Shown piece after piece: positions 3,301-63,749 of a stretch of 64,000 bases of DNA. The stretch is from the sequence record MN445185.1; one strand, written 5' to 3'. The number at the start of each line of letters is the position of its first letter. Positions within the stretch are counted from its first letter, which is position 1. Position numbers and translations under genes: made by a program. The notes beneath the pieces were generated by a model. That model was not told where the DNA came from and made no database searches. It was given only the letters and a program-made list of their open reading frames with translations. The stretch comes from Escherichia phage vB_EcoM_EC001.

Positions 3301-3584
3301 TGAAACTCGAAGGCTACGTTGTTACTGATAAACCTTTTGCTGAAGCCAACCTGTCGCGTTCACAGGTTGTTTATAAAGACATCGATGTGCCTGCCGAAAT
3401 CGTTAAAGCGAATCCCAGCTGGCTAATCAACCACGTTTCTTTGGAAATCACCAATCCGTTTATCAACGATCCAACCGACCCATTTGTCGACATGGGTAAT
3501 TTCCGCGATATTCTTTCCCCGCATCAATACCAGACAGTGGCACAGAAGAAAGGGAAGCTGCTCATCGAAACGTTGAGTGTGTAG
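3297..3584 (+). CDS. hypothetical protein (95 aa)
   Basis: ATGA start/stop overlap with upstream gene; AAAGGAG SD; followed by a strong terminator. Confidence 0.55.
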   Translation: MMKLEGYVVTDKPFAEANLSRSQVVYKDIDVPAEIVKANPSWLINHVSLEITNPFINDPTDPFVDMGNFRDILSPHQYQTVAQKKGKLLIETLSV

Positions 3585-3589
3585 TTTAT

Positions 3590-3630
3590 CTCCAGTAACC
3601 ACGAGGGTTACTGGAGTCCTCTTATTTTTT
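3590..3630 (+). terminator. intrinsic terminator
   Basis: 11-bp stem CTCCAGTAACC/GGTTACTGGAG, loop ACGAG, then TCCTCTTATTTTTT. Confidence 0.8.
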
Positions 3631-3663
3631 ACACTTAACTCAAATTAATTTGAGGTGTGGTAT

Positions 3664-4251
3664 ATGACAGAACGTATTTTACGACTGCAAGAGAACAGGT
3701 TAGAAGACCTGCACGTAATGCGTAGTCGCGGCTTGTTCCCAGTGGGGCTTGATGTAAGTGGGTTAATAACTTCTGCGCAGCACGGGGACAGGGTCATTAC
3801 AATGCATTCGCGTGGGAACGAAGTGGTCTCTGCGATTTTCATCGATAAGGTTATTCCGGACTCGGAAAGTGGTAAGGTAGCGGGACACATCATTTACGAA
3901 TACTTTCGCAGCATTCTATACGAGGAAAAGATAAACGTCAAAACTTTTATGGAGTACGCTAAGCGAAATAACTACATCGATGCGCGACTGATGGTCACGG
4001 AAGGCACCCCAACTATAAACGGTAAAGTCCACCATCGTTTACTTGGGGCGCAGTTGCCGAGACTGGGTGAGTTACCGACGACGATAGAGCTACACCAAAA
4101 AACAGATTGGCGACACAAAATCGAAGTGCTTCACAAGCTTTACGATTTATCGATCGTTCAAATCAAACTGGTGGACTTCACGCCTGCAAATATGCAAATC
4201 GCTAAGCGCGCATTGGGTTTTCGTATTCTTAACACAACGTTCACATTGTAA
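3664..4251 (+). CDS. hypothetical protein (195 aa)
   Basis: Track ORF 3655..4251 begins at GTG; start moved to ATG 3664 with GAGGTG SD. Confidence 0.65.
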   Translation: MTERILRLQENRLEDLHVMRSRGLFPVGLDVSGLITSAQHGDRVITMHSRGNEVVSAIFIDKVIPDSESGKVAGHIIYEYFRSILYEEKINVKTFMEYAKRNNYIDARLMVTEGTPTINGKVHHRLLGAQLPRLGELPTTIELHQKTDWRHKIEVLHKLYDLSIVQIKLVDFTPANMQIAKRALGFRILNTTFTL

Positions 4252-4282
4252 AATATCTCAGATATATATTACTTAGGTGAGA
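4252..4282 (+). promoter_or_regulatory. conserved promoter-like element, TATATTAC class
   Basis: …CTCAGATATATATTACTTAGGTGAG… right after stop of 3664..4251; near-identical copy at 62806; core matches phiKZ early-promoter element as I recall it. Confidence 0.45.
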
Positions 4283-4302
4283 GTTAAGAGATTAACTCAA
4301 CT

Positions 4303-4331
4303 GGCTACCCTCGGGTAGCCTATTCTTTTTT
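4303..4331 (+). terminator. hairpin + T-run between promoter-like motif and gene 4357 (terminator or attenuator)
   Basis: GGCTACC-ctcg-GGTAGCC then TATTCTTTTTT. Confidence 0.6.
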
Positions 4332-4356
4332 AAACCAATCGACTGTAGAGCAAAAC

Positions 4357-4758
4357 ATGACTATCAAGAAGTTCTTACAAACAGTAGTAGTTCTGGCCGC
4401 ATGTGGTATCGCAGCAACTTATGCTTTCGATAAGCCAGACGTGACTGAATACGTATCAGCGGATTCCGATTACGGTATTGCACCGAATGAAAAACCGGAA
4501 CTGATGCGTGAGGTCGAACAGTTACAAATCTACAAACTGACGGATGGTAAGAACTGCACAGGGCTGGTTATCGCTGATAAGAAACTGAAAATGTATCAGC
4601 GGTTAATCGACATATCGTGCGATCAACCAAAAGTCACCTCGGTCAGTGTATCGCCGTTGGAATTGCCAGATCTGGTTGCTGTGAGTTTTTATCACAACGA
4701 TGTGCTCGTTGGTCGCATCACCCTCAATCGTGGAGATATCAAAAATGAAATGCAATAA
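4357..4758 (+). CDS. putative lipoprotein (133 aa)
   Basis: N-terminal signal peptide with lipobox-like VLAAC-G. Confidence 0.6.
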   Translation: MTIKKFLQTVVVLAACGIAATYAFDKPDVTEYVSADSDYGIAPNEKPELMREVEQLQIYKLTDGKNCTGLVIADKKLKMYQRLIDISCDQPKVTSVSVSPLELPDLVAVSFYHNDVLVGRITLNRGDIKNEMQ

Positions 4759-5236
4759 CGTTAATCGCCACTTGGCCAAAGTGGTGCTTTTTACTGTGCT
4801 GTTGATGGCACTTGTTGTTGGGCTACGGATTTCTAAGGCACACGCTGACGAATTCAGCGGGTTCCAGGGCAGTATTAACGGCAGCATTCCAGCATATACC
4901 CGCACCATCAATCTTAATGATAAGCCGTTCTGGTGCAATGCGCGTAAGCTGCTTAAGAAACAGTGTCGTGTAGTTGACATATCCTTCAACGGTCGTGTCG
5001 CTATCGTACACCGTCCGGGCGATAAAGATTGCCCAGGTGGTTGGTGGGGTGCAGTCGACCGTCACAACGGTGACGCGTTATGGCTTATCCCTAATCGTGA
5101 TGAACTATCAGTGGAGAAAATTTGCAGCAAAGATTTCAGGGCCGGTTTTGTACAGCGACCGGATACCAAAACTCTGGCCTCCATCGCTATGTACTACGGT
5201 ATGGAAACCATCAAAACAATCGACTATTCAGAATAA
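4745..5236 (+). CDS. putative secreted protein (163 aa)
   Basis: Start moved from track ORF 4700 to ATG 4745 (GGAGA SD); predicted signal peptide ending ...SKAHA; several Cys; overlaps upstream gene by 14 nt. Confidence 0.6.
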   Translation: MKCNNVNRHLAKVVLFTVLLMALVVGLRISKAHADEFSGFQGSINGSIPAYTRTINLNDKPFWCNARKLLKKQCRVVDISFNGRVAIVHRPGDKDCPGGWWGAVDRHNGDALWLIPNRDELSVEKICSKDFRAGFVQRPDTKTLASIAMYYGMETIKTIDYSE

Positions 5237-5258
5237 CTCAAAAAATTGAGGTGCTATT

Positions 5259-5669
5259 ATGAAACATTTTTTATTACCAGTTTTACTTGCTACTCTGGCC
5301 ATTAGCTTCTTCGCTCGCGCTGGAAGTATCGAGTTACCAAAAGTTGTTAACGATCACGAATACGGCGGACAGTTCTGGTGCCAGAACTCTGACGTACAAG
5401 GCGGTAGCTGCCAGATCGTTGCGATGTCCGATAACAACCGTTACCTGTTAGTGAAAACGATGGGCGGTGTCGCATGTGGCGACCCTGAATACGGGGTTAT
5501 TAACATGGCAACCGGGCAAGCCGAATCCATGAACTACAATGATAACCAAGCCTGTAGCGGTGAAGCCGTTGCTGAGTTTACACGCGACCCAGGCGACAAT
5601 GCCCTGACGGTTATCATGTACGACCCTACGATTAAGAAAAACGTAGGCATCAATAAACTCGACTTTTAA
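5259..5669 (+). CDS. putative secreted protein (136 aa)
   Basis: GAGGTG SD; N-terminal signal peptide (MKHFLLPVLLATLAISFFARA); Cys-containing mature part. Confidence 0.65.
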   Translation: MKHFLLPVLLATLAISFFARAGSIELPKVVNDHEYGGQFWCQNSDVQGGSCQIVAMSDNNRYLLVKTMGGVACGDPEYGVINMATGQAESMNYNDNQACSGEAVAEFTRDPGDNALTVIMYDPTIKKNVGINKLDF

Positions 5670-5682
5670 GTAAGGAAACAAC

Positions 5683-6066
5683 ATGCGTGGATTTATGGGT
5701 ATTATCGCGGCGGTGTTCTTGACCGCTTCCGCTTCAGCTACAACCAGCGTAGAAGATTTACTGCCAGGCACACCGTATCAGTACAACCCGCCTTCATTCG
5801 AAGTCTGTACTGGCGACGATGGCAGATGTGAAGAAGTCAGCCGTCACGACGAGTATATCCTGGTCCACGCAAAGGGCGAAGAAACTTGTCCTGCAGGTTA
5901 CTACTTTCTGTTGAACTCAAAGGCACAAGAGATTGTGCCGGTAGAGACAATAACGTGCGACCCGACGCTTCGCGCGTCGCTCGCTTACAATACGAAAACC
6001 AAACAGCGCCTCCTGGTTATTGAACAACAAGGCGAAGTGCGTGGTTCAATAGCGCTCGACCAGTAA
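5683..6066 (+). CDS. putative secreted protein (127 aa)
   Basis: AAGGA SD; signal peptide (…AAVFLTASASA); Cys-rich mature part. Confidence 0.65.
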   Translation: MRGFMGIIAAVFLTASASATTSVEDLLPGTPYQYNPPSFEVCTGDDGRCEEVSRHDEYILVHAKGEETCPAGYYFLLNSKAQEIVPVETITCDPTLRASLAYNTKTKQRLLVIEQQGEVRGSIALDQ

Positions 6067-6095
6067 CCGAAAAGTTTTCAGACAGATGTTATAAC

Positions 6096-6168
6096 GTGAG
6101 ATGACGACCCATCTCACTTTGGCCCTGCGGTGATTTCCCCAACACTTAGCCGCAGGGTCCTTTTTAAT
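6096..6168 (+). terminator. tandem hairpins, second followed by T-run
   Basis: GTGAGAT…ATCTCAC, then CCCTGCGG-(19-nt loop)-CCGCAGGG followed by TCCTTTTT, which runs into the TTAATCGAC motif. Confidence 0.55.
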
Positions 6169-6181
6169 CGACTATTACTCG
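6164..6181 (+). promoter_or_regulatory. conserved 5'-leader motif TTAATCGAC(C/T)ATTA
   Basis: TTAATCGACTATTACTCG ending ~19 nt before ATG 6196. Confidence 0.35.
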
Positions 6182-6195
6182 TAAGGATTAAGCAA

Positions 6196-6696
6196 ATGAA
6201 CATGAACATTCTCGACGATACCCGTTCTTCTTTCTTTACTCAGATGAACGTTAACCCTGAACGTACCCGTGCTATTCTTTCTACTGGTTGGAAGTTGAAG
6301 TTGTTAGGCGAGTTAACCCTCAATCGCACCGACTGGCCAGCAGAAGCAACCGTACTGATTAACAGCATCCACAGCGAATGGTTAGATGCTGCGTTGAATG
6401 CCCCACAGCTACGTCCGTACTACCGGATGCTTCACGCGGGATATGAAGTATACCGCAAAGGTTGGTACGATGCAGCCACTTATTGCAAAACCCCTGAAGG
6501 TCGTGAAGACAACACTGTCGACCACGTATTAGTGAATAACTTCTGGGGAGACCAAATTGAGGTCTTACAACTCTCTACCGGTGACCGTATTCCGGCCTGT
6601 GAGTTATTCGAAACTAACGCACAAATGTACGAACCGTATGCAATGATTCGTGGCCATAAGGTCCCAATCATTTCCCTTATGCATATGGGGCTGTAA
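6196..6696 (+). CDS. hypothetical protein (166 aa)
   Basis: Track ORF 6130..6696 starts inside a terminator hairpin; start moved to ATG 6196 (AAGGA SD), preceded by the TTAATCGACTATTA motif. Confidence 0.65.
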   Translation: MNMNILDDTRSSFFTQMNVNPERTRAILSTGWKLKLLGELTLNRTDWPAEATVLINSIHSEWLDAALNAPQLRPYYRMLHAGYEVYRKGWYDAATYCKTPEGREDNTVDHVLVNNFWGDQIEVLQLSTGDRIPACELFETNAQMYEPYAMIRGHKVPIISLMHMGL

Positions 6697-6702
6697 ATAC
6701 GA

Positions 6703-6732
6703 GAGGTAGCCTACGGGCTACCTTCTTTTTTT
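6703..6732 (+). terminator. intrinsic terminator
   Basis: AGGTAGCC-tacg-GGCTACCT then TCTTTTTTT. Confidence 0.75.
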
Positions 6733-6750
6733 GTTGAAGAAGGATTAAAC

Positions 6751-7377
6751 ATGAACGAGATTACCCTGATTCGTTTCATCGACGATATGGTGACGTGTCA
6801 GAAAGCGAATCGTCAGGATACCAAACTGCGTATCAATCTGATGGAAGAAGAGGTAGAAGGGTTTCTGGAATACCCGCGATTGGTGAAGTGGTTTAAAGAA
6901 GCACTGCCGCGTAGCTGGGAACAGCTAGAAGCGTGGTTTGCTCTACCTATTGCAGAACGTAATCCCAATAATACGATCTTCACCGGAACTACTGCATTAG
7001 ATTTGGCTGGTTCGGTGGAGCAACCTAAACGTTTAGTTTTCTTCTACGTCAATGGCGATTCAATAATGGCTGATACAGTTAACTGGATTTCTGATGAGTT
7101 AACTGTAAACACCACATTGGTCGGTAGCGCTGCTGATGCCTGGGTTGTTGGTCAGCACCAATCGCAGCCGTACGAAGAAATCAAAACCGGTTATTTAATC
7201 CCGATATATCTCGACGGCGTGGCACCGGGTCGTAGTGCCGAACTGTTCAAATTCCTGCTTACTGAAACGTTAAAGGTTGTCGATTCTGATGCTGGTCGGG
7301 CGTGGTATGAATTAACCAAAGAGCGCACCGACAGTTTCTGGGAATCACTCGGCCACCGTAAGTTTACTCCGCAATAA
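6751..7377 (+). CDS. hypothetical protein (208 aa)
   Basis: ORF between two intrinsic terminators; GAAGGA SD. Confidence 0.65.
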   Translation: MNEITLIRFIDDMVTCQKANRQDTKLRINLMEEEVEGFLEYPRLVKWFKEALPRSWEQLEAWFALPIAERNPNNTIFTGTTALDLAGSVEQPKRLVFFYVNGDSIMADTVNWISDELTVNTTLVGSAADAWVVGQHQSQPYEEIKTGYLIPIYLDGVAPGRSAELFKFLLTETLKVVDSDAGRAWYELTKERTDSFWESLGHRKFTPQ

Positions 7378-7388
7378 CTCTCCTCTCT

Positions 7389-7420
7389 GGAACCCTTCGG
7401 GGTTCCATTTCTTCTTTTTT
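7389..7420 (+). terminator. intrinsic terminator
   Basis: GGAACCC-ttcg-GGGTTCC then ATTTCTTCTTTTTT. Confidence 0.75.
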
Positions 7421-7440
7421 ACGCATGACCTTTTGGATAT

Positions 7441-7454
7441 GAACGACTAATACT
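7441..7454 (+). promoter_or_regulatory. conserved 5'-leader motif (variant GAACGACTAATACT)
   Basis: Same spacing (~19 nt) to ATG 7474 as other copies. Confidence 0.3.
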
Positions 7455-7473
7455 TTCTCATTAGAAGGCAAAC

Positions 7474-9984
7474 ATGCTCAAGGTCGAACGTATCATTTTG
7501 AAAGGATTTACCGGCATGGGGTTACATGAAATCGAAACGTTTGATTTCACCCTCAAGTCCACCGTTACCATCATCCTCGGCGGTAACGGCTGCGGTAAAA
7601 CAAGCCTCCTATCTGTTTTTCTCCCCATAGCTCCAGCAAAATCTGAATTCCGTGAAGGTGGTTCTTACACTAACTACGCGTTAGTCGGGGACGACCGTCT
7701 TAAGTTTGAAGTCCTGCGTCGTGGGTCTTCTCTGTCTTGTAGTATCTTCAACATCACTAAAGGTGTTTCCGTCGTAGACTCGGTAAACGCCAAAGTTTAC
7801 AACTCCATGGTGGAGCAATTAACCGGAATCACCAAAGAAATCAAAGAGTTAATTAATGGTGAGACCTTATTAACTGACGCCACTACCGAAGTTCGTCGTA
7901 AATGGTTTACGTTAATGTCAGAATCTGATCTGACGTACGTTGTTGGTTGTTATCGTCGTCTGCGTAAACTCGCTTCCAGTTTAAGTGGGGCCATTGAGCA
8001 CACCGGCCGTAAAATCGGTGAGGCAAAAATGCGCGTGGTGGACGATGAAGAAGATCGTGCACGTTTGGAAGTTCGTTTGAAAGAACTGGACGTTGAGCTT
8101 CAGGAACTAAACCGCACCATTGAAGCGAGACCCGGTTTAGATAACGCCGTTTCGGTTGATAGTATCCGGAAACGCATTGCTTCGTTGCAACCGGCTGTAA
8201 AACTCATTATGGAGCGTTATGGTGTTCTGCCTTCTGACGAACTGATTAACGAGTTTCAAAGTCGTGTAGTTGCCTGGCGTGAGCAAGCTGCCTCTGCTGA
8301 AACTGAATGCAACATGTACAATAAAGAGTTGTCACAGCTACTGGATGAGGAGTCGCGTCAAGCGTATCTGATGCGCAACCATACCGGTCTAAAACAAACA
8401 ATCGACAGCTTAAAACAGGAACTGGCAACGTTCCAACAGAACTGGATGTTCCCGGCTCTGTTTGAAGGTACCCGCATCGATGTGGATAGCATTCAGAACG
8501 CGTTAAACGATGCCTGTAACTGGAATTTACCGTTGTCCATGCATCTGGACCAGTTAAAGACAACAGAGCGCCTGGGAGCGTTAGAGAAGCGTTTACAGGG
8601 TATGGATTTAACCTCTGCGGGTCTATCTGAAAAGCTGCAACGTTGTGAGAATGTGCTACACGGTTTATACCACGACCGTCAACACTTCTTAGAAACTGCA
8701 GAAGTTGATTGTCCACAGTGTAACCACCGTTTCCGTCCTGGGATTCGTAAGTCGTTACCTGAAATTGAAAAGGCCATCAACGATAATGAAGGTTGGAAGA
8801 AGCAGCTGAAAGACGAAATGGATAGTCTTTTGCGTGACCGCAAAGAGATTGAAGAGGACGTCCGTAGCTTACGTACGATTCGCGAAATCGTCATGTCGTA
8901 TTCCAATCATCCCGTTGTCGGTTTGTTTTTCCGTAAACTGCAGGAGCTGGATATCTTCACCACGGCGCGGGATCGTTACGGTGCCATTGCACGTGCCTTT
9001 ACTGAAGAGTTAGATTCGGCCATGATGTATCTGCGTCAATCGGCGAAGCTTGCAACAGCGGAACGGGAATGGCAAGAGGCTGTTGCCGCAGTAGGTAACG
9101 TTGATGGTGCGCTGAGCCAGAAAATTGAACATATCCGTTCACAACTGGATGGGGCTAACCGTCGACTGATAGAATACCGCAGACAAGCCAATGAGCTGGA
9201 ACGCGAAACCACCCAACTGCAACAAACCAAAGAAGCAATCGAACGTTTCCAAAAGGGCTACGAACATCTGGTATCGGAAATGAACATCTCCGTTAACAAC
9301 GTCGTGGTTCGCGAGTTGTTAAACCGACGCGAAGCGAAGCTCGATGCGTATACTTCCGCTCGTGAACGGTTTCGTCAAATGGAAGGGGCTATTGCACGTT
9401 TAGCGGAACTGGAAAAAGAGCAAGCTGAATTGCTTAAAGAGCATCACCATGCCAGATTGATTATCAATGCCGTCTCACCCGAAAAAGGATTATTGCGTCG
9501 TTACTTTTATGCTGCGATTACCCGCATCATGGATTTAATGAATCGGTATATCGAAATGGTGTGGGCATATCCGATGCAGGTTATTCCATGCGATCTAACC
9601 GACGGGGATTTGGATTATACTTTCCCGGTACGATTAAAAGACCATGAAGAACTGGTGCCGGATGTGAAGAAAGGTTCGAAGGCACAGCGTATTATCTTTA
9701 ACATGATGTTTCGTTTAACGGCGTATAAAGCGCTTGGTTTACAAAACTATCCTTTGTTATTGGATGAACCCTCTGAAGGCATGGATGAGGAACACAAAAA
9801 TCGACTGGTCAACTTCATTAAATCGTTGGCGTTGTCGGGAGAGTTTTCTCAATTGCTGGTCGTTTCGCATGAAGCGGAAGTTCATTCTAAACTTAACGAA
9901 GCCACCTACTGTGTCGTGGAGCCAGAAGGTGTAACGCTTCCACCGGTTTATAACGAAGGGGTAATAATCAAATATGCATCATAA
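7474..9984 (+). CDS. Rad50/SbcC-like SMC-family ATPase (836 aa)
   Basis: N-terminal Walker A GGNGCGKTS; long predicted coiled-coil; central CPQC (zinc-hook-like); C-terminal Walker B/D-loop LLLDEPSEGMD and VVSHE. Assigned by motif architecture only. Confidence 0.75.
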   Translation: MLKVERIILKGFTGMGLHEIETFDFTLKSTVTIILGGNGCGKTSLLSVFLPIAPAKSEFREGGSYTNYALVGDDRLKFEVLRRGSSLSCSIFNITKGVSVVDSVNAKVYNSMVEQLTGITKEIKELINGETLLTDATTEVRRKWFTLMSESDLTYVVGCYRRLRKLASSLSGAIEHTGRKIGEAKMRVVDDEEDRARLEVRLKELDVELQELNRTIEARPGLDNAVSVDSIRKRIASLQPAVKLIMERYGVLPSDELINEFQSRVVAWREQAASAETECNMYNKELSQLLDEESRQAYLMRNHTGLKQTIDSLKQELATFQQNWMFPALFEGTRIDVDSIQNALNDACNWNLPLSMHLDQLKTTERLGALEKRLQGMDLTSAGLSEKLQRCENVLHGLYHDRQHFLETAEVDCPQCNHRFRPGIRKSLPEIEKAINDNEGWKKQLKDEMDSLLRDRKEIEEDVRSLRTIREIVMSYSNHPVVGLFFRKLQELDIFTTARDRYGAIARAFTEELDSAMMYLRQSAKLATAEREWQEAVAAVGNVDGALSQKIEHIRSQLDGANRRLIEYRRQANELERETTQLQQTKEAIERFQKGYEHLVSEMNISVNNVVVRELLNRREAKLDAYTSARERFRQMEGAIARLAELEKEQAELLKEHHHARLIINAVSPEKGLLRRYFYAAITRIMDLMNRYIEMVWAYPMQVIPCDLTDGDLDYTFPVRLKDHEELVPDVKKGSKAQRIIFNMMFRLTAYKALGLQNYPLLLDEPSEGMDEEHKNRLVNFIKSLALSGEFSQLLVVSHEAEVHSKLNEATYCVVEPEGVTLPPVYNEGVIIKYAS

Positions 9985-25302: not shown

Positions 25303-25337
25303 ACGGACACTCTTCGGGGTGTCCGTAGTTTTATTTT
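25303..25337 (+). terminator. intrinsic terminator
   Basis: ACGGACAC-(tcttcggg)-GTGTCCGT then AGTTTTATTTT, running into the TTAATCGACCATTA motif. Confidence 0.7.
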
Positions 25338-25349
25338 AATCGACCATTA
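25336..25349 (+). promoter_or_regulatory. conserved 5'-leader motif TTAATCGACCATTA
   Basis: Directly after terminator T-run; ends 18 nt before ATG 25367. Confidence 0.35.
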
Positions 25350-25366
25350 ATCTAAAGGAGTATTAA

Positions 25367-26290
25367 ATGGACAGCTTTCTTTTTGATTTGGCAGAATCGG
25401 TAAATGTAGATGTAATCGGTATGCGCGAATCCCCGAGTAATTTCTTAAACGGTCTTACTAAAATCGACGAACGTGTGAAATCCAGAAGTGGAGATCCCGC
25501 CATCATCGAGCAATACGCAATAGCCCATTGTGGCGAGATAGGCCAGCACTTTATACCGATTGAGGCGTTCCTAAAGAACTGCTTCGCCGAAGAATGCACC
25601 GCAGACTTCCTGTCTCTTGCCTACGGCTGGCGATACGGGGGTATCCAAATGGAATTTGATCTTAATATTTTTGAACAAGTTCTACTTGGCGACGTTCTCA
25701 CTGAGATACCACGCAGCTGGATAGACAAGATTCCCGGTTGGGCCGTCTCCTTTTCAGTGTGCTATCGCGCTAAAGATATCGGTATCCAAGAAAAGACTTA
25801 CGTTTTCGGTCGGCGAATGTTTAAAGGGAAAGATTGTTTAACAATGATGATTTTTGGAAAACGTATCGAGGGGGAAACCTTTGAAATCGTGGACGTGGGT
25901 GACGGCTTTGTATCCTTGCGTGTGGCGGAAACTGGTACGCCGGCCAATGAGAAAACGTTACGCATTGTCGGCGCTACCATGTTTACATTCTCACTGATCC
26001 CGCACAACCCTACACCCGTCAAACTGAGACAATTAACTGGAAAGAAACGTATCGCCAATTACCACATTGAACCAAAATCTAAACCGACTGTCCTCTCCAC
26101 CGTAAAAGCACAAAGCGAGTATCTTGAAGAATTTGATACTGATACGGAGAAAAGAACACAAGGTAGCAGATGTGCGCATATGCGTCGTGCACACTGGTGT
26201 ACTTACTGGCTCGGTCCACGTGACGGGAATCGGACAAAGATTTTGAAATGGATACCGCCGACATTTGTCAACGGTTCTAAATGCAAATAA
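25367..26290 (+). CDS. hypothetical protein (307 aa), Cys/His-rich C-terminus
   Basis: AAAGGAG SD preceded by TTAATCGACCATTA motif; C-terminal RCAHMRRAHWC…SKCK could bind metal (speculative). Confidence 0.65.
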   Translation: MDSFLFDLAESVNVDVIGMRESPSNFLNGLTKIDERVKSRSGDPAIIEQYAIAHCGEIGQHFIPIEAFLKNCFAEECTADFLSLAYGWRYGGIQMEFDLNIFEQVLLGDVLTEIPRSWIDKIPGWAVSFSVCYRAKDIGIQEKTYVFGRRMFKGKDCLTMMIFGKRIEGETFEIVDVGDGFVSLRVAETGTPANEKTLRIVGATMFTFSLIPHNPTPVKLRQLTGKKRIANYHIEPKSKPTVLSTVKAQSEYLEEFDTDTEKRTQGSRCAHMRRAHWCTYWLGPRDGNRTKILKWIPPTFVNGSKCK

Positions 26291-26301
26291 AATAAAGCCT
26301 A

Positions 26302-26345
26302 CCCACTCCCCTTATGGGAGTGGGTAATGCTTATTTTTTTTTTAT
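26302..26345. terminator. bidirectional intrinsic terminator between convergent genes
   Basis: CCCACTCCC-cttat-GGGAGTGGG; long T-run downstream, A-run upstream; flanks nearly identical to the terminator at 16480. Confidence 0.8.
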
Positions 26346-29049: not shown

Positions 29050-29325
29050 ATGCGTTATCAGAAAGATATTGTAGAGCGTCTGTGTCTGGGTCTCGCTGGT
29101 ATTAGCCAGGAACTTAGCACCGCGTTCCATAACGAGTTCTCAGCACCGCGACATGCACTGTCTGAATTTAGTCATCAGGTAAATGCCCATTACGGCAACC
29201 TGATTAATGATAAACCGAAGGTTGATGCGGTCGGTGTGCCTGAACACAATGAAGATATCCCGTACTGGATTGAAGACCTGGAACGTGTGGTTCTTCCAGT
29301 GCTCCGTGAGAGGATGAAAAAATGA
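29050..29325 (+). CDS. hypothetical protein (91 aa)
   Basis: GAGGA SD; follows a terminator. Confidence 0.5.
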   Translation: MRYQKDIVERLCLGLAGISQELSTAFHNEFSAPRHALSEFSHQVNAHYGNLINDKPKVDAVGVPEHNEDIPYWIEDLERVVLPVLRERMKK

Positions 29326-61841: not shown

Positions 61842-62141
61842 ATGAAGGTCGTTAACATCGCAATACCTCCGACCCTTCGTTGTTTGACGCCGGAAGAACT
61901 GAAAGCGTTAGCGATCTACGCTATCCAAGGAAAGGCTGGTAAAGAAGTGCTTGCCGAAATCTTATCGGAACGTTTTGATACAAAACGCAAGATTAATAAC
62001 ATCATCTCCGGAATCGCGTCGCTAGATATCATGGCACTCTATTGCGACATTAAAGAGGCTGGAGTGACAATCGACTATCGCCGTACTTACTTTCTACTCA
62101 CTGAGCCGTATCGTTCGAATATGGCAATAAAGCAGATGTAA
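61842..62141 (+). CDS. hypothetical protein (99 aa)
   Basis: Start moved from track ORF 61797 (GTG) to ATG 61842 with GGGGGA SD. Confidence 0.55.
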   Translation: MKVVNIAIPPTLRCLTPEELKALAIYAIQGKAGKEVLAEILSERFDTKRKINNIISGIASLDIMALYCDIKEAGVTIDYRRTYFLLTEPYRSNMAIKQM

Positions 62142-62805: not shown

Positions 62806-62839
62806 CAAAAAGAACTGAGATATATATTACTTAGGTGAG
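62806..62839 (+). promoter_or_regulatory. conserved promoter-like element, TATATTAC class
   Basis: CAAAAAGAACTGAGATATATATTACTTAGGTGAG, downstream of a terminator and ~50 nt upstream of gene 62890. Confidence 0.45.
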
Positions 62840-62856
62840 CGTTACACGTTAACGCT

Positions 62857-62870
62857 TTAATCGACCATTA
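62857..62870 (+). promoter_or_regulatory. conserved 5'-leader motif TTAATCGACCATTA
   Basis: Ends 19-20 nt before ATG 62890; ~18 nt downstream of TATATTAC element. Confidence 0.35.
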
Positions 62871-62889
62871 CCCAGAAGGAGTATTTACA

Positions 62890-63735: not shown

Positions 63736-63749
63736 TTAATCGACCATTA
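63736..63749 (+). promoter_or_regulatory. conserved 5'-leader motif TTAATCGACCATTA
   Basis: Starts 4 nt after upstream stop; ends 18 nt before ATG 63767. Confidence 0.35.

Follow-up and report, generated by a model that had tools for sequence, protein, structure and literature searches.

A conserved sequence box beside the ribosome-binding sites of predicted early genes in SPN3US-like jumbo phages: a candidate leader element of early mRNAs

Escherichia phage vB_EcoM_EC001 (sequence record MN445185.1) is represented here by a 64,000-nucleotide stretch of one strand, the window, in which a short sequence box, TTAATCGACYATTA, recurs just upstream of the ribosome-binding sites of several genes. 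Between positions 5000 and 9000 the window shares 96-98% identity with Salmonella jumbo phages of the genus Seoulvirus (JN03, SPN3US and about 30 others), and the counterpart of the whole window in SPN3US lies at roughly 161-225 kb. SPN3US is a genetic model for the phiKZ-related jumbo phages, and its complete genome, with 264 annotated genes, was used as the reference. The phage is phiKZ-related and nucleus-forming, and its genome is transcribed by two multisubunit enzymes, a virion RNA polymerase and a non-virion one; SPN3US-like phages have been reported to be independent of the host RNA polymerase. Here we describe the distribution, context and conservation of the box and weigh what it may be, tentatively favouring a leader element of early mRNAs. 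A literature search covering SPN3US promoter and transcriptome studies, phiEaH2 and the motif strings gave no published account or transcript map; as far as the literature searched shows, the box, which is conserved across four genera, is undescribed.

Exact copies of the box are found at 6164-6177, 25336-25349, 62857-62870 and 63736-63749, all on the + strand, and allowing up to two mismatches gives the same number of matches in the window (4, with 0.78 expected). The core AATCGACYAT occurs six times, always on the + strand, against 0.31 expected, and six occurrences were reached in none of 100 shuffles. The exact copies end 17-19 nt before the ATG codons at 6196, 25367, 62890 and 63767, with a Shine-Dalgarno (SD) sequence in each gap. 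The features concerned are the following, with coordinates in the window.

4260-4281, + strand: early promoter with predicted start at 4279, followed by a 5' hairpin (4279-4298) and an intrinsic terminator (4303-4331)
4335-4348, + strand: degenerate copy of the box, CCAATCGACTGTAG, 8 nt before ATG 4357 of the gp180 orthologue
5216-5229, + strand: additional copy, ACAATCGACTATTC, at the end of the gp181 orthologue and 29 nt before ATG 5259 of the gp182 orthologue, an atypical spacing
6079-6100, + strand: degenerate early-promoter-like sequence, CAGACAGATGTTATAACGTGAG, upstream of copy 1
6096-6117, + strand: hairpin upstream of copy 1, followed at 6121-6165 by a long-loop hairpin with T5
6164-6177, + strand: box copy 1, TTAATCGACTATTA, 18 nt before ATG 6196 of the SPN3US gp184 orthologue; identical at SPN3US 167590
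6182-6198, + strand: SD sequence (TAAGGA) and start codon for copy 1
7440-7453, + strand: degenerate copy with four mismatches, TGAACGACTAATAC, 20 nt before ATG 7474 of an SbcC/SMC-like gene
25303-25337, + strand: terminator hairpin and T-run adjoining copy 2, part of an inserted module
25336-25349, + strand: box copy 2, TTAATCGACCATTA, 17 nt before ATG 25367 of a variable 307-aa gene
62818-62839, + strand: early promoter of the virion RNA polymerase type, AGATATATATTACTTAGGTGAG, with predicted start G 62837
62837-62857, + strand: 5'-terminal hairpin, GAGCGTTACACGTTAACGCTT, before copy 3
62857-62870, + strand: box copy 3, TTAATCGACCATTA, 19 nt before ATG 62890 of the gp249 orthologue
63736-63749, + strand: box copy 4, TTAATCGACCATTA, 17 nt before ATG 63767 of the gp251 orthologue (annotated with an HD domain), standing alone within the gp249 early operon
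735, 4260, 6080, 13531, 22623, 31161 (+ strand) with 31166 (- strand), and 62818: early-promoter-like sites cAGATAGATATTATCTnnGTGAG, one form of which is TATATATTACYTAGGTGAG

A first-pass annotation of the window had listed five clear copies and a partial one near 4336, all at a fixed 18-20 nt from the start codon with an SD sequence in between. Four of these are exact, while the supposed fifth at 7441 is degenerate and really occupies 7440-7453; the partial copy is present as a degenerate one, but it lies closer to its ATG than had been stated, and the regular spacing holds, at a slightly different value, for the exact copies and not for the degenerate ones. Three copies were said to abut the T-run of a preceding terminator, where only those at 6164 and 25336 do so: the 4335 copy lies 3 nt past its terminator T-run, and the 62857 copy abuts a leader hairpin at a predicted early start rather than a terminator. 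The good copy at 5216 and a core copy at 62069 had been overlooked. The latter, AATCGACTAT (62069-62078), is intragenic in the gp247 orthologue, has no SD sequence or start codon at the usual distance and is probably a chance occurrence.

The whole-genome motif scan that the first-pass annotation had proposed extends the pattern to SPN3US. There the + strand has 21 occurrences of TCGACYAT and the - strand 7, and 10 annotated start codons have the sequence within the 45 nt before them, whereas 300 permuted 8-mers reach a mean of 0.22 and a maximum of 4. All seven copies of the longer TCGACYATTA precede start codons. Behind SD sequences and terminator T-runs, 7-mers of the box are the most enriched words upstream of SPN3US genes. 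The genes that carry the box are gp5, gp30, gp55, gp56, gp66, gp101, gp131, gp135, gp137, gp180, gp184, gp249 and gp251, together with gp186, in degenerate form, and the 307-aa gene of the window. Among them gp101 encodes a Cro/C1-type helix-turn-helix (HTH) regulator (HTH_3 match, E = 2e-7), gp251 is an HD-domain protein by annotation, in which a Pfam scan found no domain, and the remaining products have no known function. Every copy lies in a predicted early transcription unit, and the stand-alone copies (gp131, gp137, gp251 and the 307-aa gene) stand within operons headed by early promoters. Structural and replication genes are never preceded by the box; their motifs are (T)AGTATGA or TAC..TATG, similar to the late and middle elements of phiKZ.

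Two annotations of box-bearing genes call for comment. An in-frame ATG with the SD sequence GCGGAG lies 27 nt upstream of the annotated gp30 start (locus L002, 23859 versus 23886); from this upstream ATG the spacing of the box is standard, and the alignment to a PHROG profile begins at residue 2 of the extended protein, so that the annotated start probably lies 27 nt too far downstream. The annotated gp130 and gp131 overlap by 74 nt (locus L004, 12242-12340), with a box and an SD sequence inside gp130 just before the GTG of gp131, and one of the two annotations may be wrong.

The box is commonly part of a larger composite, which joins it, as what had been called a second element, to a first element, TATATTACTTAGGTGAG; this connection had been missed in the first-pass annotation. 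A general early-promoter-like element, cAGATAGATATTATCTnnGTGAG, stands before about 20 SPN3US genes or operons. Its form AGATATATATTACYTAGGTGAG, which corresponds to the first element and has the strict form TATATATTACYTAGGTGA, has seven copies in SPN3US at up to two mismatches, six being exact and the gp5 copy having two mismatches. After each of the seven come, in turn, a short hairpin, the box, an SD sequence and an ATG. The strict form is an AR9-type virion-polymerase promoter, TATATTAC-N6-G+1; the AR9 virion-polymerase promoters, which were mapped experimentally, have the form TATATTAT-N6-G+1 (aAATATATATTAT-N6-G(+1)). Because the early-promoter-like geometry matches that mapped in AR9, transcription starts become predictable, and the predicted +1 falls at 62837 and 4279, in both cases the first base of the hairpin. 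The early transcript would thus begin with the hairpin, and the 62857 box would occupy +21 to +34.

The distance between box and promoter is far from constant. Before gp30 the box begins about 4 nt past the predicted start of an ordinary early promoter, before gp56 and gp186 it begins 2 nt past the G of a TTACG-N14/15-TATG element, and the degenerate 7440 copy starts right behind a promoter-like TTACG-N15-TATG at 7419-7441. The genes gp180 (4260-4359) and gp184 (6079-6198) are preceded by a promoter, a hairpin, a terminator-like hairpin and the box, in that order. The promoter, 5' hairpin and terminator-like hairpin at 4260-4331 and 6079-6165 would predict terminated 5' RNAs of about 50-70 nt, or an attenuator; small RNAs derived from 5' untranslated regions (UTRs) have been reported for phage 201phi2-1.

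Conservation was assessed on a curated set of 25 copies from Seoulvirus, Erskinevirus, Machinavirus and Wellingtonvirus. The G, A and C of the core and the A after Y are invariant in this set, the flanking A, T, C and T are present in 92-96%, and Y is free; the four bases upstream are T-rich, and the flanks vary. The box has the same orientation as the gene in 25 of 25 copies. Seventeen copies have 25-29 nt between the C of CGAC and the start codon and eight have 20-22 nt, and the Machinavirus copies, in which the box touches the SD sequence, all belong to the shorter class. The box lies 0-6 nt from the SD sequence throughout, while its position relative to the promoter varies between +4 and about +60 to +70. 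In all leaders that were folded, the prediction leaves the box unpaired, between a 5'-terminal or upstream terminator hairpin and the SD sequence.

The cassette of promoter, hairpin, box and SD sequence is shared by the Erwinia phages Asesino and phiEaH2 (Erskinevirus) and by Huxley and ChrisDB (Machinavirus), and Kwan (Wellingtonvirus) has it with a variant promoter. In the 87 kb sampled of CR5 (Derbicusvirus) there is no box, though early-type promoters are present. Orthologous leaders keep TCGACYAT while hairpin, linker and coding sequence diverge: the gp101 leaders of SPN3US and Asesino share 28 identical nt, with proteins 59% identical and a different hairpin. The leader of copy 4 likewise keeps its box before the gp251 orthologues of Asesino and Kwan, though not in CR5, and the gp101 orthologue of Huxley has promoter and hairpin and no box. 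Across 12 Seoulvirus genomes Y (T, C or G) is the sole variable position of the box. Taken as a whole, the sequences suggest purifying selection on the core only. A scan of IMG/VR for promoter followed by box returned, beyond the known relatives, three metagenome contigs (L017-L019), chance matches in an open reading frame (ORF) of an unrelated phage. Public contigs that carry the gp249 locus are all DNA assemblies. In one Seoulvirus contig (SRR7532978_3657, L028 around 2960) the hairpin of the gp249 cassette has a C to T change in its 3' arm that keeps the pairing as G-U only, a single observation that fits selection on RNA rather than DNA structure.

An independently recognisable promoter lies upstream of most copies, so the box should be transcribed as part of the 5' leader. 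The first-pass annotation had offered two possibilities, a promoter starting just before the SD sequence or an RNA-level operator, and the evidence leans towards an RNA-level role: the box appears to be transcribed, is predicted to be unpaired, is anchored to the SD sequence and ATG, lies in early units, and has a precedent in AR9 leaders. The reading that we favour, tentatively and at somewhat less than an even chance, is that the box is a leader element which controls the translation or the fate of the mRNAs of an early regulon and is bound by a factor beside the ribosome site. Several observations weigh against it. That the box is transcribed follows from a promoter prediction made by analogy with AR9; its complementarity to 16S rRNA is no better than that of shuffled sequences; and no RNA-binding domain was found in the box-bearing genes that were tested, nor any candidate for a RegA-like repressor among them. 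In several copies the stretch between a terminator hairpin with its T-run and the SD sequence holds the box and nothing else, a classic site for a promoter, and positions 11-12 of the box are T (68%) and purine (84%), as are -1/+1 of the non-virion-polymerase promoters of AR9 and phiKZ. Finally, copies within a genus are alike in spacing and flanks, and the conservation could therefore partly reflect gene conversion of the cassette.

The most serious competitor, unlikely in our view though well short of negligible, is that the box is a compact promoter of the non-virion multisubunit polymerase, possibly with a middle-class specificity factor, starting at about the 12th base of AATCGACYATTA. 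An equally unlikely corollary is that box-bearing genes would receive a second, later wave of transcription ('continuous', as in AR9), and that genes behind terminators would have a promoter of their own. Non-virion promoters of jumbo phages are just as small (A-11ACA-N6-T(A/G)+1 in AR9, T-3ATG+1 in phiKZ), and the AR9 late promoter resembles the box in its 12 nt, in AA at the first positions (76-92% in the box) and in T and purine at the last, within homologous enzyme families. The copies at 6164 and 25336 and those in SaP7 and phiEaH2 stand directly behind a hairpin and T-run as the sole conserved element before the SD sequence, and the module at 25303-26340 looks self-contained, with terminator, box, SD sequence and ORF. 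Early and late promoters arranged in tandem are on record for AR9 and for phiKZ gene 054, and 24 of the 67 mapped promoters of 201phi2-1 have no assignable motif. Against this, the box differs from the AR9 late promoter in having TC and not CA at positions 3-4 (-9/-8), in six invariant central positions where AR9 bases are free, and in the leaders it would imply. If transcription began at the 3' edge of the box, leaders would measure 17-19 nt, or about 11 nt in Machinavirus, where the start would fall inside the SD sequence, whereas mapped leaders are 26-491 nt in AR9 (PMC5312081) and mostly 31-40 nt in phiKZ; leaders below the AR9 minimum and the phiKZ typical length count for an RNA-level role over a promoter. 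Before gp30, gp56 and gp186 a second start would follow merely 11-14 nt after another predicted one. An extra promoter class would also be needed although the early AGATAGATATTATC..G and the middle/late TTAC[GA]-N12-16-TATG and TAGTATGA elements already parallel those of phiKZ and AR9, and such a promoter would never serve replication or structural genes. Moreover, some 20 other genes follow a hairpin and T-run so closely that no promoter would fit in between (e.g. 6703-6751); read-through is therefore the rule and a gene behind a terminator needs no promoter.

A DNA operator for an HTH repressor, which would block early transcription just downstream of the promoters, appears quite improbable. 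Its candidate would be gp101, which matches HTH_3 and whose own leader carries the box in SPN3US, in a form identical in Asesino, and the box is a near-palindrome, TTAATCG-A-CYATTAA, with six of seven pairs symmetric and perfect symmetry when Y is G (gp137, locus L029). This is hard to square with the single orientation of all 25 copies, with a C6 conserved at 92% opposite a freely variable Y10 (the asymmetric centre, not the arms, is most conserved), with a Huxley gp101 orthologue that lacks the box, and with a distance that is kept to the SD sequence and varies to the promoter; a Cro/XRE operator would be expected to show symmetric conservation of its dyad and no preferred orientation. We hold it very improbable that the box has no function of its own and is a hitch-hiker in a repeated cassette, similar among copies through recent duplication and gene conversion. 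Such a history would account for an extended leader, CGACYATTAATCTAAAGGAGTATT, that is identical in several copies, for the genus-specific spacing and flanks, and for cassettes that border an indel and allele-swap locus, like the PeSLs of T4. It does not account for a core that persists across genera with 35-60% protein identity while hairpin and linker turn over, for stand-alone copies that persist without promoter or hairpin, or for the single variable position in the Seoulvirus population. Together these four readings leave a minor share of the probability unassigned.

Several known elements were compared with the box and rejected. As an epsilon-type enhancer it would form 16S duplexes of -7.6 to -10.9 kcal/mol, which shuffled sequences equal or better in 38-88% of trials, and a search of the whole window with Rfam 15 at the gathering score gave no matches. 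The likeness to single-subunit RNA polymerase promoters, which the first-pass annotation had rightly suspected of being coincidence, amounts to TAAT.CGAC in common with the roughly 23-bp T7 consensus TAATACGACTCACTATAGGGAGA; it is coincidental because the RNA polymerases are multisubunit and no single-subunit polymerase is annotated, the 264 SPN3US genes having only beta/beta'-like subunits by annotation, with no dedicated domain scan. A virion-RNA-polymerase early promoter has an AT-rich box of about 10 nt near -10 and a start 7 nt after it, whereas the present box has an invariant CGAC and sits downstream of such promoters. In a phiKZ-type late promoter T-3, A-2, T-1 and G+1 are all required, and in the box YAT is followed by T in 68% of the copies and by G in 1 of 25. 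Were the box a form of the TAC element at -22 in the TAC..TATG class, transcription would begin past the SD sequence. An RNA hairpin from the palindromic arms would have five A-U pairs only and is not predicted to form, and the arms are unconserved outside Seoulvirus. A nut-like antitermination site is at odds with copies that lie downstream of a terminator or before the last gene of an operon. A scan of 3500-8000 for sigma-70 promoters found no promoter-like site at 6164, and the box has, by eye only, two mismatches to the IHF site WATCAANNNNTTR. Host proteins should not reach phage DNA inside phage nuclei.

Parallels for a leader element come from other phages. In AR9, early 5' UTRs that arise from TATATTAT-type promoters have a conserved motif of unknown function in their leaders (Lavysh et al. 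2017, PMC5312081). Both are jumbo phages with two multisubunit RNA polymerases, and the motifs are likened by description, not by sequence; AR9 is a distant Bacillus phage with uracil-DNA, and its starts are experimental whereas those given here are inferred. The RegA/RegB system of T4, which gives post-transcriptional control of an early regulon, acts through short single-stranded sites at or near the SD sequence and AUG of at least a dozen early mRNAs. The box resembles these sites in adjoining the SD sequence in all 25 copies and in being unpaired in all folds. The sequences are different, however: RegB cleaves GGAG, and RegA has AU-rich sites overlapping the AUG. No RegA/RegB homologue was identified in this analysis. 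The gene 10 leader of T7 has the same layout as the cassette, with a phage-polymerase promoter, a hairpin at +1 and a single-stranded box before a strong SD sequence and ATG. T7 epsilon has been proposed to pair with 16S rRNA, in which the present box does not beat shuffled sequences, and the invariant CGAC is not AU-rich. The PeSL cassettes of T4-like phages (PMC2839356, PMC4122927) are likewise repeated composites between early genes, at the borders of indels and allele swaps, and the cassettes at 4260-4348 and 62818-62870 and the indel and allele swap bounded by terminator and box at 25303-25349 follow that pattern. PeSLs have host sigma-70 early promoters and no described box adjacent to the SD sequence, whereas here the promoter is of the virion-polymerase type and the box can stand without it.

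The locus at 25303-26340 is variable and lies between convergent genes, where an inserted module consists of terminator, box, SD sequence and the 307-aa ORF. The module is found in the window, JN03 and Lh1B and is absent from SPN3US, while SaP7 has a 40%-identical allele. Homologues of the 307-aa protein occur in Asesino and ChrisDB. The box in its leader is kept in SaP7, variant in Asesino and degenerate in ChrisDB, and the borders of the module are conserved regulatory sequences.

Other signals in these genomes deserve mention. The bipartite, promoter-like class TTAC(G/A)-N12-16-TATG, found behind T-runs, has 33 members in SPN3US, 14 of them within 110 nt upstream of start codons where 2 are expected. 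It unites the 'middle' TAC box of phiKZ with its 'late' TATG start, and it is at odds with a 2020 review which held that middle and late promoters of jumbo phages are not bioinformatically predictable. The sequence TAGTATG occurs nine times in SPN3US, five times upstream of genes, and is a candidate late promoter; CCTTAGTATGACC lies upstream of the SPN3US tail sheath gene gp256 (L006, around 29190-29240, - strand) and is kept in Asesino, Huxley, ChrisDB and Kwan. An extended ribosome-site context, (C)TTAAGGAGTATT, is common to many SPN3US genes (in the window, for example, 25352-25366 and 62872-62889), with TAAGGAG preceding 28 start codons and GAGTATT preceding 14. Pairing with the 3' end of 16S rRNA does not account for the conserved GTATT that follows GGAG.

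If the box is a leader element, it would work as follows. With a consensus of U-rich sequence followed by AAUCGACYAU(U)(R), it would be a cis-acting element in the 5' leaders of some 13-14 early genes of SPN3US-like jumbo phages. A sequence-specific trans-acting factor, encoded by phage or host, would bind or cut the single-stranded box beside the ribosome-binding site and thereby set the translation of early mRNAs, their lifetime, or both, for example in a post-transcriptional early shut-off in the manner of T4 RegA/RegB. The box would belong to a modular cassette of terminator, virion-RNA-polymerase early promoter, stabilising 5' hairpin, box, strong SD sequence and ATG, which may have been copied around the genome and come to flank variable genes. 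More specifically, and more doubtfully, AAUCGACYAU may be read in nucleus-forming jumbo phages by an RNA-binding protein or nuclease of the phage, or by a ribosome that the phage has modified, and the translation of about a dozen early proteins would in this way be timed, privileged or shut off.

Regulation in phiKZ-like phages is known almost wholly through their two RNA polymerases, and nothing sequence-specific is known to act after transcription. The analysis provides working models drawn from sequence alone for an early promoter with its start site and for middle/late-type promoters of the TAC...TATG kind, and it places regulatory cassettes at the borders of variable genes. Should the box prove to be a promoter after all, it would represent a further class of jumbo-phage multisubunit RNA polymerase promoter that is recognisable from sequence. 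Should it be a leader element read by such a factor, it would belong to a sequence-specific circuit of translational control, the first to be described for this phage family, and a mutable box of 10 nt would offer a direct handle on the RNA-level control of early proteins and on the factor that exerts it.

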